A DNA stretch of 64,000 bases from an uncultured Candidatus Saccharibacteria bacterium (GCA_964651655.1 CAZYVS010000002.1:29471-93470), one strand, 5' to 3'; counted from the stretch's first letter, positions 7,600 through 31,796 are shown. Notes: a model not told the origin generated them from the sequence alone. Translations and numbers: made by a program.

Positions 7600-7627
7600 T
7601 TATTTATAGTGAGCTTAGTCGAACTAA
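7600..7627 (-). promoter_or_regulatory. Conserved intercistronic motif, copy a (ftsW stop to murG start)
   Basis: Coding-strand sequence TAGTTCGACTAAGCTCACTATAAATAAAAAACA-ATG. TAG is the ftsW stop codon. Confidence 0.6.
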
Positions 7628-8733
7628 GACCCCTTGTTTTTGGAAATAGAGAGAATAATGCCCACTTCAATCAGAGTGACGAAGAGAGAGGTGCCGCCGT
7701 GACTGACAAAGGGTAAAGTAATGCCTGACAACGGAATGACCCCGAGCATGGCGCCGATATTGACGAATGCTTGGGACGTTATCATTATAACAATTCCGAT
7801 GACCGTGAGTCTAGCAAAAATATTTGTCGTCTCCGACGCAATTTTGAGGCCGCGGGCGGCAAAGAGAACAAACATTAACAGTAAAAAAACCGCGCCGACA
7901 AAACCAAACTCCTCTGCAGCGACAGCAAAAATCGAATCTCCGATCGGCTCGGGCAGATAAGTAAACTTCTGAACACTTTGGCCAAATCCACGGCCAAAGA
8001 GGCCGCCAGAACCAACCGCGATGAGGGCTTGCTGGACTTGATAGCTTGCCCCTTGGGCGTCCACTTGGGTATTTAAATATGTGGTAATGCGTTGCATGAT
8101 ATACGGCCGGGTAAAAGCCAGAAACGCTAAGCCAATACTCCCGGCCAGAATAACCATCCAGACGTAGCGCCATTTTCCCCCCGCTACGATAAACATAGCC
8201 ATGCCGGCAAAGATAATCAGAAGGAAATTATCAGTGTCAGGTTGGTTTAAAAGAAGCAGGGCCGAAATAATCAAGAGAATAAGAAGCGGTAAGAAACCCC
8301 ATCGGAAAGTTTTTATTTTCTCCTTCACTCCGGCAGCCCAAGCCGCAAAATAAATAATAAAAGCCAGCTTTAATATTTCAGAGGTCTGAAAAGAAATACC
8401 GCCAAGCACAATCCAGCGCCGAGCGCCAGCGTGTTCAAAACCGATTTCCGGCACCAATACCAAAATATTGAGGATAATAGCGGCCGCCAGAAGCCAGAAA
8501 GCGGATTTTTTCCAGAACTGAAAGTCTAAACGCGAAACAGTCGTCATCGCTATCGTGCCCAAAAATAAACCAAAAACAGTCTGTGAAAAAACAATGTTTG
8601 AATAGTTTGAATTTTCTTTTGCCAGAAGAGCGAGAGCGGCGGAACTGAAAATAAAAAAACCGGATATTATTAAAATGATGGAAATGAATAAAAACGATTT
8701 ATCAACTTTTCTGCGACTTACCATACTTACCAT
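7624..8733 (-). CDS. ftsW: SEDS-family cell division protein FtsW/RodA
   Basis: Polytopic membrane protein with SEDS motifs, located between mraY and murG. Confidence 0.85.
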   Translation of the reverse strand: MVSMVSRRKVDKSFLFISIILIISGFFIFSSAALALLAKENSNYSNIVFSQTVFGLFLGTIAMTTVSRLDFQFWKKSAFWLLAAAIILNILVLVPEIGFEHAGARRWIVLGGISFQTSEILKLAFIIYFAAWAAGVKEKIKTFRWGFLPLLILLIISALLLLNQPDTDNFLLIIFAGMAMFIVAGGKWRYVWMVILAGSIGLAFLAFTRPYIMQRITTYLNTQVDAQGASYQVQQALIAVGSGGLFGRGFGQSVQKFTYLPEPIGDSIFAVAAEEFGFVGAVFLLLMFVLFAARGLKIASETTNIFARLTVIGIVIMITSQAFVNIGAMLGVIPLSGITLPFVSHGGTSLFVTLIEVGIILSISKNKGS

Positions 8734-8735
8734 AA

Positions 8736-9782
8736 TTAACTAATGAGCGCCAGAATAACACCAGTAATGGCACTAATGACAGAGACTATCCAGTAGCGCA
8801 TCACCACTTTTTCCCTCGGCCAACCCAAAGCCTGAAAGTGGTGATGAAGAGGTGTCACTCTAAAAATTTTTCTCTTAAAAAATTTATAGAAAATGTAAAC
8901 TTGAATAATGACAGAGGCGGAAGTGGCCACCAACGGCAAGGCAATAATGGGCAAAAGAAGCACCGAATCTGTGAGAAAAGCGATGACTGAAAGCGCTACA
9001 GTCAGGGCCATCATCCCCGTCTCCCCCATATAGAAACGCGCCGGCGGCACATTGAACCATAAGAAAGCAAGGATGGCGCCGGCGATGGCGCCGGCAAGAG
9101 CGGAAATATCAATTTGATTATTGACGAAGGCAATAACGGCGAAAGCGGTAAAGACCGAAGCCAGAACTCCGCCGGCCAGGCCGTCAATACCGTCAATCAC
9201 GGAAGTTGAGAAGGTGGCCAGCATAACAATAATAAAGAAAGGTATGAACCAAATCCCTAAATACCAATCGCCGTTAAACGGAATGTGAACGGAATTAAAA
9301 TCAAGTTTATAGTAGAACCACAAACTGATAGCGAGCCCGATACCGATAACTGAAATAGTTTTAATTTTGCGGTAAATCAGAGCATCTTGAGCAAAACGAC
9401 CATGGCCGTAAATATGCACCAGATCGTCTGCCAATCCTATCAAAGCGGCCAAGAAAAAGGCCCCCAACGGCACCAGAGTTTGCGAACGGGAAAAGAAATT
9501 CAGTTTTAAGGTCAAATCGGACGGCATCATTAATGAAAGAAAATAAATGGCGCCAACGGTCAAAAGCACCGCGACCCAAATTATTATTCCGCCCACTTTT
9601 GGGACGCTAAGTTCATGTTCTGTATTATGAATATTTTTAAAAGCCTCGGAAGTGCCGGCGTTCGTCCTGGGCGACTTTTTCCACATTTTGTACCGATAAA
9701 AATATCTGGTAAAAAAAGGAGTAATAAGAACACCTATAAAAAAGGTAAGAACCGTTGGTAAAATGATTTTTAGAATATCCAT
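8736..9782 (-). CDS. mraY: Phospho-N-acetylmuramoyl-pentapeptide transferase
   Basis: GLADDL and IDGIDGLAGG motifs. Confidence 0.9.
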   Translation of the reverse strand: MDILKIILPTVLTFFIGVLITPFFTRYFYRYKMWKKSPRTNAGTSEAFKNIHNTEHELSVPKVGGIIIWVAVLLTVGAIYFLSLMMPSDLTLKLNFFSRSQTLVPLGAFFLAALIGLADDLVHIYGHGRFAQDALIYRKIKTISVIGIGLAISLWFYYKLDFNSVHIPFNGDWYLGIWFIPFFIIVMLATFSTSVIDGIDGLAGGVLASVFTAFAVIAFVNNQIDISALAGAIAGAILAFLWFNVPPARFYMGETGMMALTVALSVIAFLTDSVLLLPIIALPLVATSASVIIQVYIFYKFFKRKIFRVTPLHHHFQALGWPREKVVMRYWIVSVISAITGVILALIS

Positions 9783-11599
9783 TATGGTTTCTGGCCGGCA
9801 ATAAAGACATTGTACCAGATTGCCAACACCAAAAGGAGATAGATTTTCCTCGAATTATCATCGCGGCCGGAGAGATGATGATTGATAAGATTATTTATAT
9901 ACGGGATATTCATATGTTTTTGAATATATGGATTTTCCAGAATGGTATTATAAATGTCTTTGTTATTACCGGTAAACCAATCTCTGACCGGCGTCGGGAA
10001 ACCGAGTTTCTTCCTCCGACGCACCGACTTTGGCAATATTTGTTTGAACGCCTCACGCAAGAGATATTTGGTAACCCCGCGTTTCCATTTAAATCTATCT
10101 GGAAAACTTGAAACCAGGCGCGCCACTTCGATATCCAGAAATGGCACTCTCAATTCAAGCGAATGCGCCATGGTCATTTTGTCCGCTTTAGCCAAAATAT
10201 CTCCCACAAGCCAAGTGTGAATATCAATGTACTGCATCTTGGTAGAATCGCTGAAATATGGCGCTCTGGCGTAGATATCACCGATAGAAAATTTTTTCTC
10301 TAACTTTTCTTTCCAAAGAAATTTAACTTCAGCGTTACTAAAAATAGAAGCGTTGCCGATATACCAGTCTTCAAGTTTCTGACTTGCTCTGGTGGCATAA
10401 TTTTTACCTCTAAAATTAAAAGGTAAATTGCTAATAAATTTCAAAATAATATTGGGTATCCAAGAGATCCATCGACGGGCAAATGGCTCCAGATAAATAT
10501 TGTAACCGCCAAAGAGTTCGTCAGCACCTTCGCCGGAGAGCACCACTTTGACATGTTTGGCCGCTTCTCGAGCCAAAAAATACAATCCGAGAGCTGAAGG
10601 ATCGGCTACAGGCTCATCAAAGTGCCATATCGCCTTGGGTAGATTGACAAAATATTCTTGCGCGCCAATAATAATTTCACGATGGTCGGTATTAAGCCAG
10701 TTGACGGTTTCTAACGCTTCCCTACCCTCGCTTAGAGATTCAAAACCAACGGTAAAAGTTTTAATTTTTTGTCCCGATTTTGTTCTCAAAAGTGTCGTAA
10801 CGATGCTCGAATCTATGCCGCCTGAAAGAAAGGCGCCGACGGGCACATCGGCAATCATATGGTGGGAAACGGAATCCTCCATCGTCTCAAAAATTTTTTT
10901 CTTAGTCTCTTTTTCATTCAATAAATCATTCGGCTGAAATTCAAATTTCCAATATCGTTTTATATCCATCTCGCCGGTCTTGGCGTTTATTTGCATCCAG
11001 TGAGCCGGCGGGAGTTTAAAAATGTTTTTGAAGAAAGTTTCTTCCAAAGGATTATATTGAAACGAAAGATAGTTAAAAATCGCCGCGTCATTTGCTTCCG
11101 GCCTGAAATCAGGCAAGGCAATAAAACTTTTTATTTCTGAAGAGAAAGCGGTGACTTGATTTCCTTTTTTCCAATAATATAGCGGTTTGATGCCAAAGAA
11201 ATCTCGCGCGATAAAAATCTTCTTATCTCTGGTATCGTAGATAGAGAAAGCAAACATACCGCGCAGATGCGGCAAAACCTCTTCTCCCCACTTTAGAAAT
11301 CCGGCTAAAATTACTTCGGTATCGCTATCAGTTTTAAACTTGTAATCGCTCAATGCACTTTTTATCTCCCTGTAATTATAAATTTCTCCATTGAAAATAA
11401 TCACCCACCGGCCATCACTGGAGACAATTGGCTGCCGGCCTCCGGCCAGATCAATGATGGAGAGTCGTCTCATTCCTAAAGCGACATAGTCATCGGAAAA
11501 AAATCCTGCATCATCCGGTCCGCGATGAAAAATGGCCTCGGTCATGTTTTGAATGCGGTCTCTTTCTTTCGGTTTGATTATTCCCGCTATGCCACACAT
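9782..11599 (-). CDS. asnB: Asparagine synthetase (glutamine-hydrolysing) family amidotransferase
   Basis: N-terminal MCGIAGI nucleophile and SGGIDSS PP-loop. Embedded in the peptidoglycan operon. Confidence 0.85.
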   Translation of the reverse strand: MCGIAGIIKPKERDRIQNMTEAIFHRGPDDAGFFSDDYVALGMRRLSIIDLAGGRQPIVSSDGRWVIIFNGEIYNYREIKSALSDYKFKTDSDTEVILAGFLKWGEEVLPHLRGMFAFSIYDTRDKKIFIARDFFGIKPLYYWKKGNQVTAFSSEIKSFIALPDFRPEANDAAIFNYLSFQYNPLEETFFKNIFKLPPAHWMQINAKTGEMDIKRYWKFEFQPNDLLNEKETKKKIFETMEDSVSHHMIADVPVGAFLSGGIDSSIVTTLLRTKSGQKIKTFTVGFESLSEGREALETVNWLNTDHREIIIGAQEYFVNLPKAIWHFDEPVADPSALGLYFLAREAAKHVKVVLSGEGADELFGGYNIYLEPFARRWISWIPNIILKFISNLPFNFRGKNYATRASQKLEDWYIGNASIFSNAEVKFLWKEKLEKKFSIGDIYARAPYFSDSTKMQYIDIHTWLVGDILAKADKMTMAHSLELRVPFLDIEVARLVSSFPDRFKWKRGVTKYLLREAFKQILPKSVRRRKKLGFPTPVRDWFTGNNKDIYNTILENPYIQKHMNIPYINNLINHHLSGRDDNSRKIYLLLVLAIWYNVFIAGQKP

Positions 11600-11603
11600 A
11601 AAT

Positions 11604-12548
11604 TTAGTTGTTTATATACTGCATCACGGCATTAACAATAATGCGCGCATCGTCAAAACGGCCTTCTTCGGTAGAACCAAGGATGGAAACAATTATCAAC
11701 CGACCCAATTCCGGATCAAAAACAAACGCCAAATTGCCGCCGGCCGTATCGGTAAGGCCAGTTTTAGAGGCCATGAGTCCGGGAATTTCGGCAAATGCCA
11801 CATTAGTATTTTTACCAACATGCAAACGATTATCTAAAGATTGAAAAGTGGTGGCGGCCTCTTTTGTGGCTTCAAAAAATTCGGGATAACGTGCCAGAAT
11901 ATATTCCAAGAGGACGCTTATATCCTTAGCCGTGCCGTAAGCGCCACCCTTCATCTTGGATTCGTCCAGTCCGGTTTCATTCCAGAAGTAAGTGTTTTTA
12001 AGGTTTAATTCTCTGGCCTTGTTATTCATTTCTCCGACAAAATCGTTGACAATTTCGTCCGAAGTGGCATTTGCTTTTGATAAGGCGCCAAGCGAAAGAG
12101 CCACGGCGCGCATGCCGTCATTCGACGATGTCAATAAAGAAAAATCAAGAATATCTTTCAGTCTCCATTTTTCGTCTTTGTAAAAACCGCTATTGCCTTC
12201 CGCCTTCAAAGCTTCCTCGTTTATAGTCACAGTGCCATAAAGCGGGCTTAAATCTCTAGCCACTAAGGCCGACATAATCTTGGCCAGAGAAGCAAGCGAT
12301 AGACGAGTATTTTCATTTTTGGCAAATAAGACGGTCCGGGTTCTAACATCATAAACGTAAGCGGCCTTGGCCGTAATTATTATCGGAGGAAAAGAGTTAA
12401 GGACCGCTTCCGTCGGAACCGACTTGTCTTTTCTTTCCACTTTCGAGCTAAAAATAAAAGATATGATAAACAAACCAAAAAGAAATATCGCCAGAATTAG
12501 AAAAAATTTAATTTCAGTATCGCGAAATGCCGGAAGTTGATTACCCAT
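11604..12548 (-). CDS. D-alanyl-D-alanine carboxypeptidase (S11/PBP5 family)
   Basis: SxxK motif (ASLAKIM), SxN motif (TSSNDG), and an N-terminal TM anchor. Confidence 0.75.
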   Translation of the reverse strand: MGNQLPAFRDTEIKFFLILAIFLFGLFIISFIFSSKVERKDKSVPTEAVLNSFPPIIITAKAAYVYDVRTRTVLFAKNENTRLSLASLAKIMSALVARDLSPLYGTVTINEEALKAEGNSGFYKDEKWRLKDILDFSLLTSSNDGMRAVALSLGALSKANATSDEIVNDFVGEMNNKARELNLKNTYFWNETGLDESKMKGGAYGTAKDISVLLEYILARYPEFFEATKEAATTFQSLDNRLHVGKNTNVAFAEIPGLMASKTGLTDTAGGNLAFVFDPELGRLIIVSILGSTEEGRFDDARIIVNAVMQYINN

Positions 12549-13113
12549 TTTGGTTTACTGGTGAAGTGTTTTTAAATTCCTCTATTTTCTTGAAGGCCGT
12601 ATGATAGTCCGGTAAATCTTCACAACTGGTGGCACCTAAATGCTCCAAAAGTCTAATACTGGCTTTGTAACTATAACTTCTTCCTGCTCGGACCACTTCG
12701 TCAGCCGAGTATACCGTATCATCAGGACGTTCTATAAGCCCGCGGATCATTAGCGAGCGTAAAATAAAACTGGAATTAACTCCGCGGATATGATCAATTT
12801 CGCGGCGGGAAATCGGACCTTGATAGAGAATAATGGCGAGAGTTTCCAAACTGGCACGACTAAGTTCTCTGGAAAATTCTTCCTTTGCCACATTTTCAAT
12901 CAACGCGCTGGCATCCGGATGAGTGCCGAAGCTGATGTTTTCTCCGTCTGAAACAATCACAATGCCTCTGGTTTTATAAAATTCTCGGAGACTGCTTATG
13001 GATTTTTCAATCTCATTCTTTTCAGCGTTTAGAGTCCTCGCCAGTTCTTTAACCGAAACCGGTTCGTTTTTGAAAAAAAGTATTGATTCTATTTTAAATT
13101 CTAAACTAGACAT
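12541..13113 (-). CDS. scpB: Segregation and condensation protein B
   Basis: ScpB-like wHTH sequence; overlaps scpA. Confidence 0.8.
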   Translation of the reverse strand: MSSLEFKIESILFFKNEPVSVKELARTLNAEKNEIEKSISSLREFYKTRGIVIVSDGENISFGTHPDASALIENVAKEEFSRELSRASLETLAIILYQGPISRREIDHIRGVNSSFILRSLMIRGLIERPDDTVYSADEVVRAGRSYSYKASIRLLEHLGATSCEDLPDYHTAFKKIEEFKNTSPVNQNG

Positions 13114-13849
13114 AAATTGGGGTATTTACCGATTCGCTTTCTATCTCTAAATCTCCCCTACCTTCCTGCGTGACACGGATGGCACCACGTTTAACAAGTT
13201 CAAGCATCGCAAGAAAGCCAATGATTATTGAAACTTTTTTCTCATAAGTGAGCGCTCCTTTGGCGCCATGAAATTCTTTAAAGTTAAGTTTGCTTGTCTT
13301 GGTAATTTGTGCCGCGAGTTTTTTTATCATTTCTTCAAGACTTATAATTTTTTTGACTACCACTTGCGGCAGTGTTTCTTTCTTCGGCAATGATTCTATC
13401 ACTCTTTCGAGAGCCAGAAAAATATGTTCTGGGTCAGTTTTAGAATCCGGGGAGAAAATTATCATTTGATTTTTAGACGGCATTTTCTCAAAGATAATTC
13501 TTTTACCAAAAATATTTTTGAGAACCAGAGCTAGTTCCTTGACTCTGGCATAAACGGCGAGACGATTTTCCAAATCATGGATACTTTCTTCTTCCTCCTC
13601 TGTCAATCGAATCATCGGCAGGAGCGACCTGGATTTAATGAGCATCAGAGTTGAAGCCACAACAATAAATTCCGCCGACTCTCTTAACGGAAAATCTTCG
13701 TGTTCATCGATATATCGTATAAAATCGTCCGTCACTTGAGACAACGACACGTCATTCACAAAAAGTTTTCTTTTAGTCACCAGTTCAAGAAGAAGGTCCA
13801 GCGGACCTTCAAAAACCTCCGTTTTTACGGTATATGAGTTTCCTATCAC
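13106..13849 (-). CDS. scpA: Segregation and condensation protein A
   Basis: ScpA family (LDLLLELV...). Confidence 0.8.
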   Translation of the reverse strand: MIGNSYTVKTEVFEGPLDLLLELVTKRKLFVNDVSLSQVTDDFIRYIDEHEDFPLRESAEFIVVASTLMLIKSRSLLPMIRLTEEEEESIHDLENRLAVYARVKELALVLKNIFGKRIIFEKMPSKNQMIIFSPDSKTDPEHIFLALERVIESLPKKETLPQVVVKKIISLEEMIKKLAAQITKTSKLNFKEFHGAKGALTYEKKVSIIIGFLAMLELVKRGAIRVTQEGRGDLEIESESVNTPIYV

Positions 13850-13867
13850 CCCATCATTATAGCGTTT

Positions 13868-16712: not shown

Positions 16713-16727
16713 ATTAGCCCTATGGTA

Positions 16728-18362: not shown

Positions 18363-18440
18363 ACGCCATTAATTATATTGGGGTTCGTTAGAATAGTCTA
18401 GTATATGTATAATTACTCAAAAATCTGCTATAATTTCGGT

Positions 18441-19481
18441 ATGCGAAAATCAAAAACAACAAAGAAATTTCTATCTAGGCCGGTAGAACATATAGATATT
18501 AAAAAACTTGATCTCACGAAGACAGTAAAAGCCATGTCTAAAATGTCCTTTTCTGCGAGAGATGCAGCCAACGCAGCAGAAATGTATGCTCGAATGGTTA
18601 AAGATAATGATTGCGTTAATATTTTAACACTTGCTGGTAGTACCAGTGCAGCTGGTTGTATGCAAATTTATACAGACATGGTAAGACACAAAATGATTGA
18701 TGTGGTCGTAGCCACGGGTGCAAGTATTGTAGATATGGATTTTTTTGAAGCATTAGGATTTAAACATTACCAAGGCAGCCCCATTGTCGACGACAAAATG
18801 TTACGTAGTTTATATATCGACAGAATTTATGACACGTACATCAATGAAAACGATCTGCAGAAATGCGATGCGGCAATTATGGAAATTGCTAACGGCCTGA
18901 AAACACATCCTTATTCATCACAAGAATTTATAAGAGAAATGGGCAGATATTTGACAAAACGTTCAAAAAAAGACGACTCTCTTATACAAGCCGCGTTCGA
19001 AATGGGTGTTCCAATATTTTGCCCGGCGTTCTCAGACAGCAGTGCCGGTTTTGGTCTCGTAATGCATCAAGTAAAAAATCCGAGAGACCATGTTTCTATT
19101 GATTCGGTCAAAGATTTCTATCAGCTGACCCAAATAAAAATCAAAGCTAAAAATACAGGTTTGCTCATGATAGGTGGAGGAGTGCCCAAAAACTTCGCTC
19201 AAGATACTGTGGTGTGCGCTGAAGTGTTGGGACACAATGTTCCCATGCATAAGTACGCTATACAAATAACTGTTGCCGATGTCAGAGATGGCGCATGTTC
19301 TAGTTCCACCTTAAGAGAAGCTAACTCCTGGGGTAAGGTTGATAGCTTATCAGAACAAATGGTGTATGCGGAAGCGACTACAGTATTACCAATGATTGCC
19401 AGTTATGTATATCACCAAAAAGATTGGAAAAGGCGAACAAAAAAAGATTTTAACTCTGTATTAATAAAATTGTCCAGTTAA
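18441..19481 (+). CDS. Deoxyhypusine synthase-like (DHS family) protein
   Basis: VVATGASIVDMDFFEALGFKHYQG matches the DHS family core. An extended -10 (TGCTATAAT) sits 6 nt before the ATG (leaderless). Confidence 0.6.
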   Translation: MRKSKTTKKFLSRPVEHIDIKKLDLTKTVKAMSKMSFSARDAANAAEMYARMVKDNDCVNILTLAGSTSAAGCMQIYTDMVRHKMIDVVVATGASIVDMDFFEALGFKHYQGSPIVDDKMLRSLYIDRIYDTYINENDLQKCDAAIMEIANGLKTHPYSSQEFIREMGRYLTKRSKKDDSLIQAAFEMGVPIFCPAFSDSSAGFGLVMHQVKNPRDHVSIDSVKDFYQLTQIKIKAKNTGLLMIGGGVPKNFAQDTVVCAEVLGHNVPMHKYAIQITVADVRDGACSSSTLREANSWGKVDSLSEQMVYAEATTVLPMIASYVYHQKDWKRRTKKDFNSVLIKLSS

Positions 19482-21766: not shown

Positions 21767-21988
21767 TCACGTGAGACGTATGTCGACAGGGCCAATGGGG
21801 TTAAATTCTCCTTTCTTTACCCCATTAAGGAACGCTTGCCATTCATTGTTGTTGAAATGAAGAGTTGGACCATTAGGATCTTTGGAAGATCTAACAGCCA
21901 CGCCATTTTCATTGCGAGCAACCGCCACGCACCAGCAGCCCCATTTTTGGCTGTCATCTGCAACGTGGAAATCCTTATCTTCGAACAT
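21767..21988 (-). CDS. DUF397-like small protein
   Basis: WGCWCVAVA...VAVRSSKDPNGPTLHFNNNEWQAFLNGVKKGEF matches the DUF397 pattern (actinobacterial family). SD AGGAGGTGA lies 9 nt before the ATG. Confidence 0.6.
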   Translation of the reverse strand: MFEDKDFHVADDSQKWGCWCVAVARNENGVAVRSSKDPNGPTLHFNNNEWQAFLNGVKKGEFNPIGPVDIRLT

Positions 21989-22911: not shown

Positions 22912-22949
22912 ATACGTTAATGTAATGCGGTCGCATTAAAGTAACGTAT
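22912..22949. promoter_or_regulatory. 38-bp palindromic operator-like element, copy A
   Basis: ATACGTTAATGTAATGCG-GT-CGCATTAAAGTAACGTAT. Related to the copies at 34594-34631 and 35227-35264. Confidence 0.5.
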
Positions 22950-22994
22950 GTCTATAAACACTATGTTTGTGTTATAGTAGCAACGTTATTGACA

Positions 22995-23067
22995 GGGCTC
23001 ATAGTAAAGTGGTATTACACGGCATTCGCATTGCCGAGTCCCGGGTTCAATCCCCGGTGAGTCCACC
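22995..23067 (+). tRNA. tRNA-Ala (anticodon CGC)
   Basis: Manual fold: acceptor GGGCTCA/TGAGTCC with G3:U70, D stem GTAA/TTAC, anticodon stem CGGCA/TGCCG, loop TTCGCAT, T arm CCGGG-TTCAATC-CCCGG, discriminator A. Confidence 0.85.
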
Positions 23068-23114
23068 GACAGAACCGTCGATGATAAAATGTTCTCCAAA
23101 GCGCATTAAGAACA

Positions 23115-23978: not shown

Positions 23979-25879
23979 TATTTAGTTTCAGCGTCTTTGA
24001 TATCTGGATTTTCCGGCGGTTTTTGTTGTTGATCGTCAGTTGTTTGTTGTTTATTAAGATATTCTCCGATTTTTTGTATTTCTGTCGAAAGAGCTTCGGT
24101 GGCAGACTTGATCGAATCAATTGTACCACTCTCTTTTTCTTTCTTGAGCCCCGTTATTTTCTCGTTGATCAGAGTCTTGATATCGTCCGGCACATTGGCG
24201 TTGTCTTTCAGAGATTTCTCGGCGGTATAGATGAGTTGTTCTGCCATATTTTTCGCATCAACCAAATCTTTTTTTTTCTGATCTTCCGCGGCGTTGGCTT
24301 CCGCGTCCTTTTGCATCTTTTCAATTTCGCCCTTCGATAGACCGGAGCTGGCTTCTATTCTGATGGATTGTTCTTTGCCTGTAGTTTTATCTTTCGCCTT
24401 CACATTCAAGATACCATTGGCGTCAACGTCAAAGGTCACTTCTATCTGCGGCATACCGCGCGGCGCGGGCGGTATGCCATCCAGAATGAATCGGCCAAGC
24501 GATTTGTTGTCGGCGGCCATGGCTCGTTCGCCTTGGACAATATGAATTTCCACAGAAGTTTGACTGTCGGCCGCGGTTGAAAATATCTGCGATTTCGCCG
24601 AAGGAATGGTGGTATTTTTCTCAATCAACTTGGTGGCCACTCCACCCATGGTTTCAATACCAAGCGAAAGCGGAATGACATCAAGCAAAAGCACGTCCTT
24701 AACATCACCGGCCAAAATTCCTCCTTGAATGGCGGCGCCGAGAGCCACCACTTCATCCGGGTTAATAGACTTGTTTGGTTCTTTGCCAAAAAATTTCTTA
24801 ACTGATTCCACTATCGCCGGCATGCGCGTCTGACCTCCCACCAAAATCACTTCATGCAAATCGCCAACTTTAAAAGGAGACGCTCCCATAGCGCGCTTGG
24901 TAATTTCCATCGCTCGGCTTAGAAATTCATTAGAAAGTTCTTCAAGCTTGGCTCTGGAAAGTTTCAAAAGCAGATGTCTGGGGCCGGATGCATCTGAGGT
25001 AATAAAAGGTATGTTAATTTCAGTTTCTGTCGCCGTGGAGAGCTCGATCTTGGCTTTCTCCGCGGCCTCATCGAGTCTTTGGAGCGCCAAGGCATCCGTC
25101 CTAACGTCAATGCCGGACTCCTTTTTAAATTCTTCCGCGATATAATTGAGAACTTTTTGATCTATATCTTTGCCTCCCAAATGCGAATCGCCATCGGTTG
25201 ACTTTACTTCAACCACATCATCCCCCACTTCAAGGATTGAGATATCAAAGGTGCCGCCGCCAAAGTCAAAGACGGCAATTTTTTCATTCTTCTTTTTATT
25301 AAAACCGTAAGCCAGAGCGGCGGCGGTCGGCTCATTGATAATGCGCTTAACATCCAAGCCGGCAATCTGACCGGCATCTTTGGTGGCCTGACGTTGAGAG
25401 TCGTTAAAGTAAGCCGGCACGGTAATAATGGCTTCCGTAATTTTTTCGCCCAACTTGGTTTCGGCATCTGTTTTCAATTTTTGAAGAATCATGGCGGAAA
25501 TTTCTTCGGGACGATAATCCTTATCAGACATCTTCACCAACACTCCGCCGGTAACGCCGGCCTTGACTTCAAAGGGCACGGTAGCTTTATCTTTTTGAAC
25601 CGCCGGGTCGGAGAAAGTGTGGCCTATAAATCGTTTAATGCCAAAAATCGTGTTTTTAGGATTAGTGACGGCCTGACGCTTGGCTAAAAGCCCCACTAGA
25701 CGATCGCCTGTTTTAGACACCGCAACAATGGAAGGTGTGGTACGCGCCCCTTCGGCATTTTCTATAATTCTCGGCTGGCCCGCTTCCATCACCGCTACCG
25801 CGGAGTTTGTAGTGCCAAGATCAATACCAATTATTTTTGCCATATATTTATGTAAATTAATTTGTAATAAACGCCCCAA
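23978..25879 (-). CDS. dnaK: Hsp70 chaperone DnaK
   Basis: [18 protein letters not shown]; full-length Hsp70. Confidence 0.95.
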
Positions 25880-26387
25880 CTTTCACTTTCGCCGGACGAA
25901 CTACTTTACCATTCAATTTATACCCTTTCTGTAAAACTTCCAAGACTTTATGATCCGTCTCGTCCGTATCTACGGGAATAGCGGCTAACGCCTCGTGTTC
26001 ATGTGGACTGAAAGTTTCATTTAGAGAATCTATCTCCTCCAGACCATTGGCCTTAAGCACCGCGAATAACTGATTGTATAAAGGCTCAAAGTCTTTATGG
26101 CCCTGGCTCAAGGCTATATTAAAACTATCAAGCACGGGAATCAATGCCTCAATCAGAGAGAGCTCGGCAAATTTGATAAACTCCGATTTTGCTTCTTCAT
26201 CGCGTCGGCGGAAATTGGCAAAATCCGCTTGCGCTCTTTGCCAACCATCAAGATACTCTTTGGCCTTGGCCTCCGCCTCCTTCAGACGTTCTCGGAGTTT
26301 CTTTATTAATATTTGAGCTGATTCTTCCTCTACTACGGAATCATCTAAATCAGACTTATCTATTTCAATATTATCTTCTTCTTTCAT
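25857..26387 (-). CDS. grpE: Nucleotide exchange factor GrpE
   Basis: GrpE coiled-coil and dimerisation region ([16 protein letters not shown]). Confidence 0.85.
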
Positions 26388-26396
26388 ACCAATTAC

Positions 26397-26795
26397 TTAA
26401 CGCTTACTCCACTTTGGGGCCTTGCGGGCTTTCTTGAGGCCGAATTTTCTGCGTTCTTTGGCGCGAGGGTCGCGTTTTAGAAATCCTTTAATCTTAAGCT
26501 TGGCACGCAGATCGGGATCAAAAGAAACAAGCGCTCGACCCAGACCATGCTTCAAGGCTTCAGCTTGCGAAGAAATACCCCCACCATTAAGTCTGGCCGT
26601 TACCTGGAACTTGTTTTCCGTGTTATCAAAAATAGATAAAACGGTTCTTTGGAGCATCGGTGTAGGAAAATATTTCTCCAAGTCTTTGCCATTTACAGAG
26701 ATGGAAACTTTTGAAGCGGGAGTCATACGTACTCTGGCCACAGAGGTCTTTCGTCTGCCAACCGCTTCGGTATATTTTTCTTTTTTTTCCATCAT
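26397..26795 (-). CDS. rpsI: Ribosomal protein S9
   Basis: GGGISSQAEALKHGLGRAL; C-terminal ...KARKAPKWSKR. Confidence 0.9.
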   Translation of the reverse strand: MMEKKEKYTEAVGRRKTSVARVRMTPASKVSISVNGKDLEKYFPTPMLQRTVLSIFDNTENKFQVTARLNGGGISSQAEALKHGLGRALVSFDPDLRAKLKIKGFLKRDPRAKERRKFGLKKARKAPKWSKR

Positions 26796-26796
26796 A

Positions 26797-26822
26797 TTAT
26801 TTATAGTGAGTTTGTCGAACTA
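26797..26822 (-). promoter_or_regulatory. Conserved intercistronic motif, copy b (rplM stop to rpsI start)
   Basis: Coding-strand TAGTTCGACAAACTCACTATAAATAAT-ATG. Confidence 0.6.
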
Positions 26823-27167
26823 GGCTTTTATGTTCAAATTCTTCATCATTTTGGCGCGTAATTTATTTTTCGGAAGCATACCGTATATTGCCCGACGCAA
26901 TACTTCTTGGGGCCCTTTCGTTTTGACTATATACTCTTGAGATCGTCTTTTGAGATTTCCTGGAAAACCGGAGTGACTGAAATAGCTTTTAGCTTTTAGC
27001 TTCTTAGCTTCTAGCTTCATGGATCCGGTATTCATAACTTCAACCAAGATATCTGGAATACGGTTTCTGGCGAAATCTGTTCTATTTTTACCCATCAGAA
27101 ACACGGCCGCTTCCGTTGCGACCCGGCCCGGCACTCTGCCTTTTGCGTCTATAATATGTTTTTTCAT
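26820..27167 (-). CDS. rplM: Ribosomal protein L13
   Basis: L13 family sequence. Confidence 0.9.
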   Translation of the reverse strand: MKKHIIDAKGRVPGRVATEAAVFLMGKNRTDFARNRIPDILVEVMNTGSMKLEAKKLKAKSYFSHSGFPGNLKRRSQEYIVKTKGPQEVLRRAIYGMLPKNKLRAKMMKNLNIKA

Positions 27168-27189
27168 TTATAGTGAGTTTATCGAACTA
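27166..27189 (-). promoter_or_regulatory. Conserved intercistronic motif, copy c (rplQ stop to rplM start; overlaps the ATG)
   Basis: Coding-strand TAGTTCGATAAACTCACTATAAATG. Confidence 0.6.
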
Positions 27190-27534
27190 TACAAATTCTA
27201 TAATCGCCATGGGACTGGCATCCGTCATCCGCGGTCCCATTTTAATGATACGAGTATAACCTCCGGTTCTATCTTTATACGCCACGGAGAGTTTCTCTGC
27301 AATCTTTTTTGCCGCCGCCGGGCCAATTCGACTTTCCAGAAGACGGCGAGAGGCGATAGTCTGCTTTTTACCCAAAGTAATAAGTTTCTCCATAAAAGGA
27401 CGAAGCGATTGGGCCTTGGGTTCTGTGGTTTTAATTTTATCCTTTAGAGTCAGCGAGCGAGCCAAAGATTTGAGCAAAGCATTTCTTTGATTTTTTTCAC
27501 GGCCAAATTTTCTATTAGCATTATGATGTCGCAT
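27187..27534 (-). CDS. rplQ: Ribosomal protein L17
   Basis: L17 family sequence. Confidence 0.9.
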   Translation of the reverse strand: MRHHNANRKFGREKNQRNALLKSLARSLTLKDKIKTTEPKAQSLRPFMEKLITLGKKQTIASRRLLESRIGPAAAKKIAEKLSVAYKDRTGGYTRIIKMGPRMTDASPMAIIEFV

Positions 27535-27544
27535 AATTTCCGAG

Positions 27545-28522
27545 TTATTTCAACGTAATGCCAAATTCTCCGAGCGCTTTCTTGATTTCTTGTATACCCT
27601 TGGCTCCAAGACCGTCAATATCAAGCAAATCTTTTTCTTTTTTGCGAGCCAAGCCTCCTACAGTGCGAATATTAGCCATAGAAAGCGCGCTTCGAGTACG
27701 AGAGGAAACGTCCAGAGATTCCACACGCGTCTTTAGAATTTCCGGGTCAACGGCCGATTTGACAACCGGGCCATGACTTTCGCGCACGCTCTTGTTTTCA
27801 GTCACGGGCTCGTCTTCTTTGAAACCGACAATGGCCTTGAGCTGATCTATCATAATGCCAATGGCGGCAGAGAGGGCGGCGGAAGGAGAAATGGTGCCGT
27901 CTGTTTCAATAAACATTTTCAGTTTATTGAAATCTGTTCTGTCTCCGACGCGCATGTTTTCAACTTCATAACTGGCTCGACGAATGGGAGTAAAAATGCC
28001 GTCGAGAGCCATAGTCCCGATATCAACGCGGGATTTTTCAATCATTTCTTTCGGCATAAAGCCGAGGCCCTTCTCCGCTTTAATTTCCATATCAAGCACG
28101 GTATTTTTCCCGATGATTGTGGCAATCACTTCATCGGGAGTGAGAATCTCCACCTGTCCGGGAACTTCCAAGTCGGAAGCCCGAACCACCTTCTCGCCTG
28201 CCTGCGTGGCCAAACCCTTAACCTTTAGGTAAAGAATTTGAGGTTCATCAGTGGTAAAACGCATACGAATTCTTTTAAGATTAAGCAGGATAGTAACCAC
28301 ATCTTCCTTTACCCCCTCTAAAACGGTAAACTCATGGTTAACACCGGCAATCTTGACCGAGGTAATGGCCACCCCGGGCAAAGAAGAGAGTATGATGCGG
28401 CGAAGACTGTTACCAAGGGTGTGTCCATATCCGGGATACAAACCTTCAATTTCAAAGACACCGCTTTCTCCTTCTTCAGATATTACTTTTGGTTGTGAGG
28501 GTAAAAGTATTGTGTAATCAGC
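27545..28522 (-). CDS. rpoA: DNA-directed RNA polymerase alpha subunit
   Basis: MADYTILLPSQPKVI...GNSLRRILLSS-type N-terminal domain plus alpha-CTD. Confidence 0.9.
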   Translation of the reverse strand, partial: ADYTILLPSQPKVISEEGESGVFEIEGLYPGYGHTLGNSLRRIILSSLPGVAITSVKIAGVNHEFTVLEGVKEDVVTILLNLKRIRMRFTTDEPQILYLKVKGLATQAGEKVVRASDLEVPGQVEILTPDEVIATIIGKNTVLDMEIKAEKGLGFMPKEMIEKSRVDIGTMALDGIFTPIRRASYEVENMRVGDRTDFNKLKMFIETDGTISPSAALSAAIGIMIDQLKAIVGFKEDEPVTENKSVRESHGPVVKSAVDPEILKTRVESLDVSSRTRSALSMANIRTVGGLARKKEKDLLDIDGLGAKGIQEIKKALGEFGITLK

Positions 28523-28557
28523 CATAAAAATATAAAAATTAAGGTTAAATTGTAACA

Positions 28558-29163
28558 CTATCTGTTATAGAATTCAATCACCACCCCGAGATCAAAGATA
28601 TTTTCCTTTGCTGCATAGACCGCTTGGCCCAAGACGGTGACTTGTCTCTTCTCCGGATCCGCTTTCAACCACACAGGCATAGCGATAGTTTTCATTCTCT
28701 CTTCAACCTCTCCAAAAAGAGGACTTGAAGCGGAACCGGCGCGCAGACCGACAACATCGCCTTTTGAGAGAAGGATAGAGGGTATGGTGACACGGGCATT
28801 ATTGACTATGATATGTCCATGGCTGGCGGCTTGACGGGCCTGCGCGCGTGTTTTGGCCAAACCGGAGCGATAGACGATATTATCCAACCGGCTCTCCAGA
28901 ATACTAAAAAGTTTTTGAATCGGATCTGAAGCGCGTAAAGCTTTGGCGACGTAGGTTCTAAATTGAGCTTCGCTTAAGCCATAGCTGTAACGAGTTTTTT
29001 GTTTTTCTATCAGTTCCTGGCCGAATTCACTTTTTGGCTTTCGGTGACCTTTATCATTTTTCTCCTTGCGCGCCAATGAAAGCACATACTTCGGGGTTTG
29101 AGTTTTTTCAAAAACTGGAGCCCCCAGACGCCTGGCTATTTTATATTTTGGTCCTATTCGCAT
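28558..29163 (-). CDS. rpsD: Ribosomal protein S4
   Basis: S4 family sequence. Confidence 0.9.
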   Translation of the reverse strand: MRIGPKYKIARRLGAPVFEKTQTPKYVLSLARKEKNDKGHRKPKSEFGQELIEKQKTRYSYGLSEAQFRTYVAKALRASDPIQKLFSILESRLDNIVYRSGLAKTRAQARQAASHGHIIVNNARVTIPSILLSKGDVVGLRAGSASSPLFGEVEERMKTIAMPVWLKADPEKRQVTVLGQAVYAAKENIFDLGVVIEFYNR

Positions 29164-29168
29164 AAAAA

Positions 29169-29195
29169 TTATTTATAGTGAGCATGGTCGAACTA
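29169..29195 (-). promoter_or_regulatory. Conserved intercistronic motif, copy d (rpsK stop to rpsD start)
   Basis: Coding-strand TAGTTCGACCATGCTCACTATAAATAATTTTT-ATG. Confidence 0.6.
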
Positions 29196-29633
29196 TGTTC
29201 TCCTTGGTTTGGGCGGTTTTGGTCCGTTGTGAGGCACGGCGGTTTTATCTTGAATAGCGGTTAAATTTATACCTTTGGAAATAAAGCCTCTGATAGCCGA
29301 TTCTCGGCCGGAACCAACGCCTTTAATGGCCACCTTGACTTCTTTGACGCCCAAGGCCTGCGCTTTAAGCGCTAAAGTCTCGCCTACCTTGGCAGCCGCA
29401 AACGGCGTACCTTTCTTGGCTCCTTTGAAGCCAAGACTGCCGCTTGAAGACCAGGCTAAAGTATTACCTTTGTTATCAGCCAACATTAGTTTAGTATTGT
29501 TATATGTAGACTCAACATAAAGAACACCCGAGTCGATACGCCTCTTACTTGATTTCTGTTCCTTAGCCGCCTCGGTGTCTGCCGATTTTTCTTCTATTTT
29601 GTCTCTGATTGTAGCTATTTTTTTCTTTCCCAT
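29193..29633 (-). CDS. rpsK: Ribosomal protein S11
   Basis: S11 C-terminal signature; start at MGKKKIATIR. Confidence 0.9.
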   Translation of the reverse strand: MGKKKIATIRDKIEEKSADTEAAKEQKSSKRRIDSGVLYVESTYNNTKLMLADNKGNTLAWSSSGSLGFKGAKKGTPFAAAKVGETLALKAQALGVKEVKVAIKGVGSGRESAIRGFISKGINLTAIQDKTAVPHNGPKPPKPRRT

Positions 29634-29640
29634 TGGATAA

Positions 29641-30018
29641 TTATTTCTTCTCGGCCACCTTGCGTCCCGTACCCATGGTTTTCCTCGCTCCTCGTTTTGT
29701 TCGGGCATTGGATTTGGTGCGCTGACCGTATACCGGAAGATTGCGCATATGGCGCAAGCCCTTATAAGACCTTATCTCTTTCAGTCGTTTAATATTGCCG
29801 GCCACTTCTCTCTTCAAATCACCCTCCAGGGTTAGGCCTTCAATAGCGGAACGAATTTTATTTTCCTCTTCTATGCTGACTTCTTTGGGCTTTTTCCCAA
29901 AAGGCACGCCCGCTTTTTCAAGAATAATTCTGGCTCTTGGACGGCCAATGCCAAAAAGCGTAGTCAGACCGATTTCAAGACGCTTTTCTTCCGGAAGAGT
30001 GATGCCGAGTATTCTCAT
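29641..30018 (-). CDS. rpsM: Ribosomal protein S13
   Basis: MRILGITLPEEKRLEIGLTTLFGIG. Confidence 0.9.
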   Translation of the reverse strand: MRILGITLPEEKRLEIGLTTLFGIGRPRARIILEKAGVPFGKKPKEVSIEEENKIRSAIEGLTLEGDLKREVAGNIKRLKEIRSYKGLRHMRNLPVYGQRTKSNARTKRGARKTMGTGRKVAEKK

Positions 30019-30135
30019 TTAACCTTGTCTTTGTTTATGTCGCGGGTTGGCTTTGCAAGTGACGTAAACATAGCCCCTTCTGCGGACTATCTGGCACTTA
30101 GCGCATAATTTTCTGACCGCCGCCTTGACTTTCAT
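30019..30135 (-). CDS. rpmJ: Ribosomal protein L36 (38 aa; not in the ORF track)
   Basis: Manual translation gives [38 protein letters not shown]. Confidence 0.8.
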
Positions 30136-30201
30136 AACAAGACTGCATTCTAACTCAACTCTGTTTTTCTGTCTACCCCACCAGACCCCGTCTGATTGGG
30201 T

Positions 30202-30423
30202 TTAGAGTCGTTTGATGATGCGGGCCTTGCCGCCATAAGGCTCCAGTTCTAAAAGCACTTTGTCCCCCACCAAAACTCTGATGCGATGTAGGCGCATTTT
30301 ACCAGAGAGATAAGAGAGAATTTCCTCCTCCGTTTGGTCAAGTTTAACGCGAAACATAATATTGGGTAGAGATTCAATCACAATTCCCGTTCTTTCCAAA
30401 TCAGAGGATTTACTTTGCGGCAT
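30202..30423 (-). CDS. infA: Translation initiation factor IF-1
   Basis: S1-like IF-1 sequence. Confidence 0.9.
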   Translation of the reverse strand: MPQSKSSDLERTGIVIESLPNIMFRVKLDQTEEEILSYLSGKMRLHRIRVLVGDKVLLELEPYGGKARIIKRL

Positions 30424-30426
30424 ATA

Positions 30427-31755
30427 TCATTTGACGGGAAGTTTCTTCAAGAAGATATCGGCGCCATTCTCGGGAAAAGAACTTTTCCAAAATGGTCTGA
30501 TGGTGGCGGTCGCCTTAGCAACAGTCGGATAATTATTAAGAATGGAAGGAAGATCCTGTTTACTTCTCCCCAATAAATCGGCTTTTAGGGCCACCTCGTC
30601 CACATTCCATTCTATCGTCGTCTCACCCCTAACGGAAAAACTGATTTTGTTTGAAGACAGCGGATTAATTGACGCGTTGTTTGTCAAAGCAAATTCAAGC
30701 GAGTCGAGTTTATCGATATTCAGCGATTCACCGGCCGCTAAAGTGACTTTGTCAACAACCAATTCACGAGACAGATCGCTTCTTTTGAACATAACTCCGG
30801 CCAAGTCAGCAGACATATTTATCATCACCCCTTCCCCGTTGGTTGGAACCGATTGAGGCAACTCTTTAAAAGTGACCGAGGAAAGAGACGGCAACAAGAT
30901 AAAGTCTTCCGGCACTTGAGCTTTGGCTTCGGAAATTAATCCTTCTTTGAGCGCGGTTTCAAGTTGCTCTCTGACTCGCGCCCCATCTTCACTTTTGATT
31001 ATCTTTTCCGTACCGGAAAAGCCGCCGGACATTTCGGTCTTAGAACGAGCATACACGGAGGCAAACAGCGAAGTGCCCTTAAGCCCGGGAAGAGTAAAAT
31101 CGGCAAACCCGATATTGAATCCTTGGCCGGGACGTTCGGCATAGACCACCACTTCCAGAGCGCCCAATTTTTCTTCACCGTTGACCAGTTTCTTGCCGGG
31201 AATAACAATGGCATCCGGGACTTGATAAATTTTACCGTCCGGGGTTTCAAAACGCGTCGTGGCCCTCAACCTCTGTTCAACGATACTGGCATTATAGACA
31301 ACAATGGTGCCGCTAGCTTTTCTTTCTACTTCCTGTTCTCCGGATGTGGACACTTCTTGACCTTTCTCCATAGAAAGTTTAACAATGCTAAAAAGAAGTC
31401 CGCTCTCGCCCTCCTTGCGCGCCTCATACAAGCCACCGTCAAAAGACACTGCTTGAGATTTAGGCACATAGGCCAACGTGGCGCCGCCAAATACGGAAAG
31501 TATAGGAAAAATGAGTATCAGGACGGCGATGCCGATTGCTATCCACTTGCGTCTGCCCCGGCTATTGGCGGAACTACCGCCGTTTGGCGGAAAATTGAAA
31601 CTATTATCAGGCGATGAATCATTAAACGAATAATTTTCTTTTGAAGTTTGGGGCATTTCGCGACGCTCGATTCTGCGACGTCCCTCGGGAATAGGAATGT
31701 CCCGAATGCTTCTTTTTCTCTCTGGCACGACTATGTCTTCAATATGTTTCGGCAT
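30427..31755 (-). CDS. Hypothetical membrane-anchored protein (442 aa) at the position usually held by secY/adk/map
   Basis: Basic N-terminus, one TM helix, and a large extracytoplasmic domain with no recognisable motifs. Confidence 0.5.
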   Translation of the reverse strand: MPKHIEDIVVPERKRSIRDIPIPEGRRRIERREMPQTSKENYSFNDSSPDNSFNFPPNGGSSANSRGRRKWIAIGIAVLILIFPILSVFGGATLAYVPKSQAVSFDGGLYEARKEGESGLLFSIVKLSMEKGQEVSTSGEQEVERKASGTIVVYNASIVEQRLRATTRFETPDGKIYQVPDAIVIPGKKLVNGEEKLGALEVVVYAERPGQGFNIGFADFTLPGLKGTSLFASVYARSKTEMSGGFSGTEKIIKSEDGARVREQLETALKEGLISEAKAQVPEDFILLPSLSSVTFKELPQSVPTNGEGVMINMSADLAGVMFKRSDLSRELVVDKVTLAAGESLNIDKLDSLEFALTNNASINPLSSNKISFSVRGETTIEWNVDEVALKADLLGRSKQDLPSILNNYPTVAKATATIRPFWKSSFPENGADIFLKKLPVK

Positions 31756-31770
31756 GTCAAAAATTATAAC

Positions 31771-31796
31771 TTATTTATAGTGAGCTTGTCGAATTA
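31771..31796 (-). promoter_or_regulatory. Conserved intercistronic motif, copy e (alaS stop to the hypothetical gene)
   Basis: Coding-strand TAATTCGACAAGCTCACTATAAATAA, then a second TTATAAT 7 nt before the ATG. Confidence 0.55.

Follow-up and report, generated by a model that had tools for sequence, protein, structure and literature searches.

The window, by which we mean the whole 64-kb stretch of DNA analysed here (GCA_964651655.1 CAZYVS010000002.1:29471-93470), carries nearly the same short sequence at gene junctions as unrelated as ftsW–murG, rpsK–rpsD and the end of alaS. This raises the question of what the sequence is and why it stands at these boundaries. It is well supported that it represents a clade-specific short interspersed family of repeats, 27–28 bp long and non-palindromic, with the family form TAG-TTCGAY-N3-4-CTCACTATAAATAAT and the consensus TAG-TTCGAC-AAG-CTCACTATAAATAAT. 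Equally well supported is that copying has placed the repeat at tight stop–start junctions across many unrelated operons of one Parcubacteria subgroup, and also on two or more apparent phage contigs. Judged from the relatives of its RpoA, the window organism is itself a member of the Parcubacteria (Paceibacteria), near Candidatus Zambryskibacteria. Its S4 protein was matched in GCA_016185455.1 (contig JACPNM010000011.1).

The copies in the window were read directly and re-oriented to the coding (minus) strand. There are five intact copies and one decayed copy, all on the minus strand and all at stop–start junctions (Table 1). The five intact ones are those listed by the first-pass annotation, and their flanking genes are supported by Pfam: FtsW–MurG, L13–S9, L17–L13, S11–S4, and AlaS (430 aa) followed by a 442-aa protein that has no Pfam match. 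All five share the consensus TA(G/A)-TTCGA(C/T)-N3-4-CTCACTATAAAT(A/G)A. Their near-identity is beyond chance, as the 12-mer CTCACTATAAAT occurs five times in the window against 0.36 expected, and none of 100 shuffles contained five or more; a chance origin is thereby ruled out. The leading triplet is the stop codon of the upstream gene in all five copies, being TAG in four and TAA in the alaS copy, and no Shine-Dalgarno (SD) sequence precedes the downstream ATG in any of them, GGAGG being absent. Both points agree with the earlier description. The distance from the TATAAAT end to the ATG is -2, 3, 7, 8 and 17 nt.

Two parts of that description needed amendment. It held that no other intergenic region carries the motif; the intact two-block pattern TTCGAY-N3-4-CTCACTATA does occur at these five places only in the whole window, but a mismatch-tolerant scan revealed the decayed sixth copy, with four mismatches, between a 76-aa open reading frame (ORF) and a flavodoxin-like gene. 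The core of the proposed consensus stands, but the unit is longer than was described. Among the collected copies it extends to TATAAATAAT, with TATAAAT followed by A (90%), A (86%) and T (59%), and a handful of types make up most of its spacers (CAAG 33, TAAA 14, others). As a separate observation, the stop region after uvrB (TAGTTCGGCGACC) matches the first block without the second, and may be a remnant or a chance match.

The extent of the family was established using the scan pattern ATTTATAGTGAG-N3-4-RTCGAA, from which the stop codon was left out; it returned at least 120 loci from metagenomes and 7 loci from viral contigs. Eighty loci fetched solely by RpoA similarity also belong to the collected set, which comprises the window and 207 loci (2.1 Mb; individual loci are given L numbers). 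The pattern scan and the loci already collected gave at least 139 distinct copies on more than 120 metagenome and phage contigs. The triplet before the motif is TAG in 116 of 139 copies and TAA in four, and nine of the 19 copies lacking a direct TAG or TAA read TAG, one base, TTCGA. Since the pattern omitted the stop codon, TAG belongs to the motif. It ends an ORF of at least 50 codons in 88 copies. Among the relatives fetched by RpoA similarity the motif was found down to approximately 70% RpoA identity and not beyond. One sub-variant reads TAG-G-TTCGAC-AGG-CTCACTATAAAT, followed by repeated TGGGTT(T/C)G units (L117:3531, L130:5705, L137:873).

The neighbours of the copies encode 65 downstream and 62 upstream Pfam families in more than 40 types of junction. 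About half are ribosomal, with S8–L6 (11–12 copies), L13–S9 (6), S19–L22 (4), L23–L2 (4) and S11–S4 (4). Non-ribosomal junctions include pilB–pilC, minor pilins, ftsW–murG, a split transketolase and CsoR–P-type ATPase; a type IV pilus operon holds six copies, and others lie beside dprA and ligA. Convergence of approximately 22 identical bases at more than 40 unrelated junctions is not possible, and the sequence has therefore been copied from place to place. Furthermore, a few spacer subfamilies recur across different junctions and genomes. Each of the two apparent phage contigs has one sense copy at a gene junction, one of them (L206) being a clear tailed-phage structural module. The density is approximately one copy per 11–20 kb. 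Copies were never found inside genes, because the repeat carries stop codons, in all three frames with a 3-nt spacer and in two of three with a 4-nt spacer. It is well supported that each copy brings its own TAG stop for the upstream gene, closes at least one further frame, and leaves a structure-free, A/T-rich leader without SD sequence before the next gene.

Comparison of orthologous junctions demonstrated that the repeat comes and goes. At S11–S4 the motif is present in the window, L003, L009 and L016 and decayed in L004, L010, L013 and L014, and the junction is only 5–10 nt long in L001, L002, L007 and L018; other genomes carry the repeat at S13–S11 or L13–S9 instead. The first-pass annotation had named absence from orthologous junctions in close relatives as an observation that would refute it; in many relatives the repeat is indeed absent, and it is not a fixed feature of its junctions. 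Lineages L004, L013 and L014 hold decayed copies only, as would be expected after loss of a trans-acting reader. Filled and empty sites of relatives compare as follows. Between L016 (filled) and L017 (empty), at 89% identity, the difference is a 21-nt indel with substitutions; an exact 23-nt indel separates L012 from L015, and the empty site of L015 retains TAG; the empty site of L019 (GATTAATATG), compared to L011, equals the filled site minus the repeat, which fits a TA duplication. Transposition with duplication of TA receives no consistent support overall, the indels being 21 and 23 nt and TAG being kept in L015.

At both S11–S4 and L13–S9 the two blocks are 100% identical in four orthologous copies each, whereas the third codon positions of the flanking genes are saturated (35–47% identical). 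A rare spacer, CCATG/CCACT, is common to the window and L003 and speaks for vertical descent with purifying selection on the blocks. It is well supported by these observations that the repeat is a dispersed copy-and-paste element under sequence-specific constraint, and it behaves as a dispensable one.

Covariation is seen within the repeat. The base after TTCGA covaries with the base before CTCAC (C..G 80, T..A 24, C..A 8, T..G 2, C..T 2; Fisher p 1e-11 for 3-nt spacers), and the paired bases are too close for a hairpin. A GC-content artefact was rejected (GC 0.432 vs 0.417, p=0.39). A variant subfamily changes TATAAATA to TACAAGTA or CACAAGTA, again exchanging T-AA-A for C-AA-G.

Several familiar signals were considered and rejected. 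The earlier suggestion to look for RNA structure led to a negative answer: the predicted fold is unstable (minimum free energy -0.8 to -2.1 kcal/mol) and no better than shuffles (dG -0.8 vs -1.3 shuffled), and the possible TAGT/ACTA stem is not compensated in the variants, so neither a hairpin nor a covarying structure is tenable. A mimic of the tRNA T-arm (GTTCGA) fails, as the closing stem is impossible at the required positions. Read-through of UAG to make a fusion protein was also rejected; the downstream gene is in frame in 33 of 61 cases with a 3-nt spacer and not with a 4-nt spacer, and stops occur within some of the spacers. Pairing with 16S rRNA was dismissed, the best duplex (16S region of L116) being with a stray partial inverted copy in the leader and not with mature rRNA; the 16S 3' tails differ between motif-bearing lineages. 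Rfam at gathering threshold reported only three tRNAs in the window and nothing at the motif sites in 14 loci. No intrinsic terminator hairpin was found at the repeat, and a coding-strand scan of 26300-33200 lists no site at copies 2–5; the terminator scan gave a weak plus-strand (antisense) stem at 29180-29200 that overlaps copy 4.

The L116 leader is an observation in its own right. Approximately 60–120 nt upstream of the 16S gene, the pre-rRNA leader contains two degenerate copies about 50 nt apart, one inverted (ATGAGCTTGTCGAA) and one forward-like (CTCGACTACGCTCGGGGTAAAAT). In L091 (530-1504) an L29–S17 pair is duplicated, and a variant copy of the repeat lies within the first, lengthened L29 ORF; either a misassembly or a duplication mediated by the repeat may account for this.

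The placement of the copies is strongly biased. In the window and L001–L019, co-directional gaps of at most 12 nt make up approximately 1.4% of the non-coding DNA, yet they hold most copies, and the long intergenic regions that form more than 90% of it are avoided. Among classified copies 88 are sense and 13 inverted, so that 87% point at the downstream gene. Skews at 4-fold sites, used to relate orientation to replication, were too noisy for a verdict. In sense copies the ATG lies -2 to 17 nt past TATAAAT (mode 3), with nearly all within 17 nt, and most commonly directly after ...AAT, abutting the 27-nt unit. The 13 inverted copies have their TAG end (...GTCGAACTATG) joined to the ATG of the downstream gene, and the TAG within ATTTATAGTGAG often serves as the stop codon of the upstream gene; the majority fall into a spacer subfamily of their own, TTCG/TTTG. 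Copies in genuinely intergenic positions stand 14–27 nt ahead of SD-led genes (L090, L118, L180). Stop–start junctions are the preferred site, and copies before terminators, in arrays and in an rRNA spacer occur as well. Nor are the copies all in the sense direction: 13 of 139 are inverted, within operons or between divergent genes, and an antisense pair lies in an rRNA spacer.

What could hold such an element constant? We infer that a putative sequence-specific reader keeps both blocks unchanged while the spacer drifts. On the pattern of the sequences, we tentatively regard the repeat as a portable stop/restart cassette, the restart being most likely a compact internal promoter for a putative high-specificity reader. 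The upstream cistron would terminate at the TAG of the repeat, and expression of the downstream cistron would be restarted from it. The restart would most likely be transcriptional, from a high-information promoter read from TTCGAC to TATAAATA by the postulated factor, yielding transcripts whose SD-less leaders are very short, in hosts where leaderless-type starts are already in use. The copy-and-paste spread would have left inverted copies, copies before terminators and tandem arrays as by-products. Consistent with this proposal, both blocks resemble parts of the T7 promoter (8/8 and 7/9) and TATAAATA equals the T4 late -10; the spacer varies in length by one base, as in promoter spacers; intergenic copies stand 14–27 nt before SD-led genes; one copy lies inside the phage structural operon of L206; the host has a leaderless-type layout; and some motif-bearing lineages have no CCUCC anti-SD sequence. 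The first-pass annotation had listed a promoter, a re-initiation signal and a regulator or RNase site as possible roles. Each is a candidate role; a leaderless promoter with a fixed start does not agree with the variable distance to the ATG.

A number of observations weigh against a promoter. The distance to the ATG is not conserved; it ranges from -2 to 17 nt overall, and S8–L6 by itself shows values between 3 and 11 nt. A sigma-70 promoter within the repeat was rejected, as the -35-like TCGACA stands only 7–9 nt from TATAAA or any -10-like hexamer, against the 16–18 bp of that promoter class. Copy 5 is followed by a canonical TATAAT promoter before the ATG; with block 1 (TCGACA) and an 18-nt spacer this makes an 11/12 sigma-70-type match, and among copies 2–5 (scan of 26300-33200) such a pairing with an outside -10 was seen for copy 5 only. 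Copy 2 pairs at 10/12, but its -10 falls on the S9 start codon. A variant subfamily, CTCAC(T/C)ACAAGTA, has no TATA. Ten inverted copies lie inside operons (e.g. map–infA, ftsL–ftsI), from which a promoter would produce antisense transcripts, and the orthologous inverted copies of L113 and L196 form a conserved pair. Copies also stand before a terminator hairpin (L121, L123) or a convergent gene (L174), as an antisense pair in a 16S–tRNA spacer beside a hairpin (L187, ~930-985), and in tandem arrays in L123 (x4), L185 (7196-7245) and L187. Operon 5' ends behind long intergenic regions almost never carry the repeat. The exact-match scan makes the repeat look more invariant than it is, as imperfect copies outnumber perfect ones among the extra unselected copies in the same loci. 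Finally, no cognate polymerase or sigma factor for the repeat was identified in the 2.1 Mb. Regarding two of these loci, the L123 array (reverse complement, 252-347) consists of three 23-nt units TAGTTCGACAGGCTCACCACAAG, a full copy and then the terminator hairpin, and in L121 a foreign gene is inserted after the repeat copy.

An unlikely alternative, yet one that deserves consideration, is a signal at the RNA level. The sequence UAG-UUCGAC...CUCACUAUAAAUAAU in polycistronic mRNA would be bound by a specific protein or cut by an RNase, giving stable processed ends similar to PPR10-type footprints, and/or an open region for SD-less re-initiation at the next AUG. This would suit the fusion to a stop codon in 88 copies with the AUG close behind, the unstructured RNA with its A/U-rich 3' part lacking an SD sequence, and an SD-poor host of which some lineages lack the anti-SD. 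The strong bias towards sense orientation fits as well, and copies in 3' untranslated regions before terminators, as well as arrays, suit an RNA-stability element. Inverted copies yield a different RNA, yet form a distinct and apparently maintained subfamily. There is no 16S complementarity beyond the stray leader copy, no binding protein is known, and 22 fixed bases are more than a mere open spacer needs.

Similarly doubtful is a purely selfish mini-repeat, moved in trans by a putative enzyme and persisting only where it is harmless. It would be tolerated at stop–start junctions by restoring the stop and leaving an open A/T-rich leader, and its conservation would be due not to a host function but to turnover, to insertion in the recent past and to what the mobilising enzyme requires. 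The patchy presence with clean 21–23 nt indels between close relatives speaks for this, together with the few spacer subfamilies common to several junctions and genomes, the occurrence in both orientations, in tandem arrays, on phage contigs and in an rRNA spacer, the TA at both ends of the unit with some empty sites equal to the filled site minus the repeat, and the genomes with decayed copies only, as for an extinct family. Against it, the repeat has no terminal inverted repeats (the left end TAGTTCGAC is unrelated to the reverse complement of the right end ATTTATAGTGAG), no hairpin and no consistent target duplication, and no transposition mechanism is known for a 27-bp non-palindromic unit. 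The copy shared by the window and L003 is apparently vertical, its blocks perfect while synonymous sites are saturated, and the orientation bias of 88:13 is not expected of such an element.

A site in double-stranded DNA acting outside expression, irrespective of orientation (uptake, recombination or a nucleoid protein), is improbable. The candidate phyla radiation (CPR) includes both Saccharibacteria and Parcubacteria. Spread between species would occur by transformation and by recombination through the conserved flanking genes. Both orientations occur, with the conserved inverted orthologous pair among them, one sequence is common to many species and enriched between highly conserved genes whose flanks favour interspecies recombination, and the copies in the pilus operon and beside dprA and ligA would be in place. 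In the same direction points an account describing Saccharibacteria as naturally competent (PMC10187176). Nevertheless, the avoidance of long intergenic regions and the orientation bias are not in agreement with such a site, the density is far below that of known uptake sequences, the 44 bits of information are far above the need of a binding site, and uptake signals presumably originate through point mutation and not as 23-nt blocks.

The first-pass annotation had also noted a likeness to phage T7 promoters. The T7 class III consensus is TAATACGACTCACTATAGGGAGA. Against this consensus the likeness is real and stronger than described: block 2 (TCACTATA) equals T7 positions -8 to -1 at 8/8, and block 1 (TAGTTCGAC) matches positions -17 to -9 (TAATACGAC) at 7/9. 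The T7 promoter is contiguous over about 23 bp (-17 to +6), and its recognition regions -17 to -12 and -11 to -5 are at a fixed spacing. In the repeat the two T7-like halves are always split by 4–5 extra bases (N3-4 plus C), and the contiguous T7 geometry is not reproduced. A phage-type polymerase had been proposed as a search target; tblastn of T7 RNA polymerase against the window and the 207 loci (2.1 Mb) produced no hit below E=0.66. We know of no report of a single-subunit RNA polymerase in CPR genomes, and there was none in the literature searched. It is very improbable that Parcubacteria run a high-specificity phage-type system, with a diverged single-subunit polymerase or a novel factor, on their own ribosomal, division and pilus operons. 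Least credible of all is a genuine phage-type promoter, used by a single-subunit (T7-like) RNA polymerase of the host or a resident phage for internal starts in housekeeping operons: 15 of 17 positions follow the T7 consensus in the same order and orientation, near-identical high-information cassettes are found in T7-like phages, copies occur in phage contigs and 87% point at the downstream gene, but the extra 4–5 bp would break the fixed contact geometry of polymerase and promoter, the initiating bases are AAT and not GGG, one subfamily has no TATA, no polymerase homologue was found in the window or the 2.1 Mb of related loci, and the phage contigs carry one copy each instead of a promoter set.

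Parcubacteria are uncultivated, ultra-small groundwater bacteria with tiny genomes and long operons, and their expression signals are essentially unmapped. The repeat, 27 bp long and almost letter-perfect, is constrained at dozens of gene boundaries per genome and is common to many species and some phages; some specific machinery must presumably read it, be it a polymerase or factor, an RNA-binding protein or a mobilising enzyme. Identifying this machinery would uncover either a hitherto undescribed expression signal of SD-poor, leaderless-prone bacteria or a novel means by which very short DNA is moved. The motif already marks the clade in metagenomes and flags operon junctions, and the filled and empty alleles in sister genomes are natural experiments. 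Genetic tools for CPR bacteria are still missing, and the repeat could be of use in them if it proves to be a portable promoter or restart signal of high strength. If it belongs to a phage-type system, bacteria would have an equivalent of the phage-type polymerases that the nucleus encodes for organelles, with cassettes spread by copy-and-paste.

The wider window gives some background on the host. Its expression signals include canonical -10 elements, and most internal genes are tightly coupled. At many operon-first genes TGnTAnAAT lies 6–8 nt before the ATG without an SD sequence, a layout that suggests widespread leaderless mRNAs. Strong AAAGGAGG sites precede a minority of small ORFs. Three motif-bearing contigs (L116, reverse complement ~2940-3000; L175; L187:612-662) have a 16S 3' end reading ...GGAGTAATTCAATTT or ...GGAATATTTCAAGG instead of GGATCACCTCCTTT, i.e. 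without the CCUCC anti-SD, and the tail differs between lineages. Directly after the S4 stop, the S4–rpoA junction has TGTTACAAT in the window and TAGTGTTATAAT in relatives, and the element is also present in L001–L010. By its sequence it is a conserved extended -10 fused to the TAG stop, that is a canonical internal promoter of rpoA, and rpoA probably starts at the ATG at 28525 rather than at the GTG at 28558.

Some of the genes also deserve mention. The AlaS of the window (approximately 425–430 aa) matches positions 1–432 of 552 in tRNA-synt_2c and consists of the catalytic and tRNA-recognition part, with no editing or C-Ala domains; more distant relatives have room for a longer gene. The 442-aa protein has a basic N-terminus, one transmembrane helix and a large domain without Pfam match. 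It is conserved directly upstream of infA in all relatives, the usual place of secY-adk-map, and adjoins infA even where alaS is 2 kb away. A split alaS, to which the 430 and 442 aa would add up, was rejected, as the 442-aa protein has no AlaRS domains. A 352-aa protein combines sigma-70 region 4 (residues 25–79) with HARE-HTH (230–290) and lacks region 2; as a candidate reader of the -35-like block TCGACA it is speculative, and among the collected loci it was seen at one other locus only, at the locus edge. The window further encodes a deoxyhypusine synthase homologue, here in a bacterium, a GluRS of 295 aa with the catalytic domain only, and an asparagine synthase within the mraY-ftsW-murG cluster. 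No strain-level polymorphism was seen in the source population.

Table 1. Copies of the repeat and other features of the window (coding-strand sequences; positions counted from the first letter)
Feature	Position	Strand	Sequence or remark
Copy 1, ftsW–murG	7600..7626	-	TAGTTCGAC-TAAG-CTCACTATAAATAA; TAG 7626-7624 is the ftsW stop; murG ATG at 7593, 8 nt past TATAAAT
Copy 2, rplM(L13)–rpsI(S9)	26796..26822	-	TAGTTCGAC-AAA-CTCACTATAAATAAT; then ATGATG, S9 start 26795
Copy 3, rplQ(L17)–rplM(L13)	27165..27189	-	TAGTTCGAT-AAA-CTCACTATAAATG; L13 ATG (27167-27165) overlaps motif end
Copy 4, rpsK(S11)–rpsD(S4)	29168..29195	-	TAGTTCGAC-CATG-CTCACTATAAATAAT; then TTTT, ATG at 29163
Copy 5, alaS(430 aa)–442-aa membrane protein	31771..31796	-	TAATTCGAC-AAG-CTCACTATAAATAA; TAA is the alaS stop
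Segment from copy 5 to ATG	31756..31770	-	GTTATAATTTTTGAC; canonical TATAAT 7 nt before ATG at 31755
Copy 6, decayed	47124..47150	-	TAATTCAATAAACTTATTATAAATAAA-ATG, read as TAATTCAAT-AAA-CTTATTATAAATAAA; ORF stop 47150-47148; flavodoxin-like gene 46527-47123
Stop region after uvrB	58230-58246	-	
TGnTAnAAT before ATG	41811-41830	-	from sequence
TGnTAnAAT before ATG	42760-42783	-	from sequence
TGnTAnAAT before ATG	44040-44056	-	from sequence
TGnTAnAAT before ATG	53408-53424	-	from sequence
TGnTAnAAT before ATG	34498-34514	-	from sequence
TGnTAnAAT before ATG	33069-33086	-	from sequence
Small ORF with strong site	21767-21988		
Small ORF with strong site	57879-58193		
Small ORF with strong site	44149-44379		
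S4–rpoA junction	28526-28560	-	
AlaS	31794-33086	-	
442-aa protein	30427-31755	-	
Region-4 + HARE-HTH protein	38512-39570	-	
Deoxyhypusine synthase homologue	18405-19481	+	
GluRS	5564-6451	-	
Asparagine synthase	9782-11599	-	

Compared to known systems, the repeat resembles in its distribution the REP/BIME sequences of enterobacteria and pseudomonads, which are moved by RAYT. Both are short (REP about 35 bp) and present in many copies, do not leave transcribed intergenic space, where they lie at operon ends or between co-transcribed genes, and occur in either orientation, in clusters and patchily between relatives. REPs are, however, imperfect palindromes with hairpins, whereas the repeat is non-palindromic, unstructured, fused to stop codons and strongly biased in orientation; a RAYT gene was not encountered, though none was sought. 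Correia elements and related MITEs (IS630/Tc1-like, TA target) are likewise small and dispersed with TA ends, lie next to genes and are co-transcribed with them; MITEs are known to bring promoter and processing signals, and the ...CACTATA of the repeat resembles the Correia terminus. MITEs, however, measure 80–300 bp, carry terminal inverted repeats and clearly duplicate TA; the 27-bp repeat has no inverted repeats and shows no consistent duplication. The DNA uptake sequences of Neisseria (DUS) and Pasteurellaceae (USS) are also identical clade-wide, present in both orientations, shared across species and near conserved genes. They have cores of 9–12 bp at approximately one per kb, many of them in genes, in contrast to a repeat of 27 bp at one per 11–20 kb that is never in genes, prefers tight junctions and is oriented 88:13.

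Among expression signals, PPR10-type chloroplast footprints are conserved intercistronic sequences of approximately 20–25 nt in ribosomal and other operons, and have been proposed to define mRNA ends and to open the next start site. They are few per genome and not mobile, inverted copies would not function, and no PPR-like reader is known for the repeat. Promoters of the T7 group share TCACTATA (8/8) and TAnTnCGAC (7/9) in the same order, pointing downstream, and are near-identical high-information intergenic cassettes, whereas the repeat has split halves, AAT instead of GGG after TATA, inverted copies and arrays, and a bacterial host instead of a phage genome. The late promoters of phage T4, read by gp55, stand in tight junctions before genes with no -35 at canonical distance, and TATAAATA is exactly their -10. 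T4 needs this 8-mer only, whereas the repeat fixes 14 more bases, varies in its distance to the ATG and has a (T/C)ACAAGTA subfamily, and no gp55-like factor is known here. A description of the repeat was not found in the literature searched, including by the sequence itself. It appears to match no described family and, on these comparisons, would belong with the bacterial short interspersed intergenic repeats.

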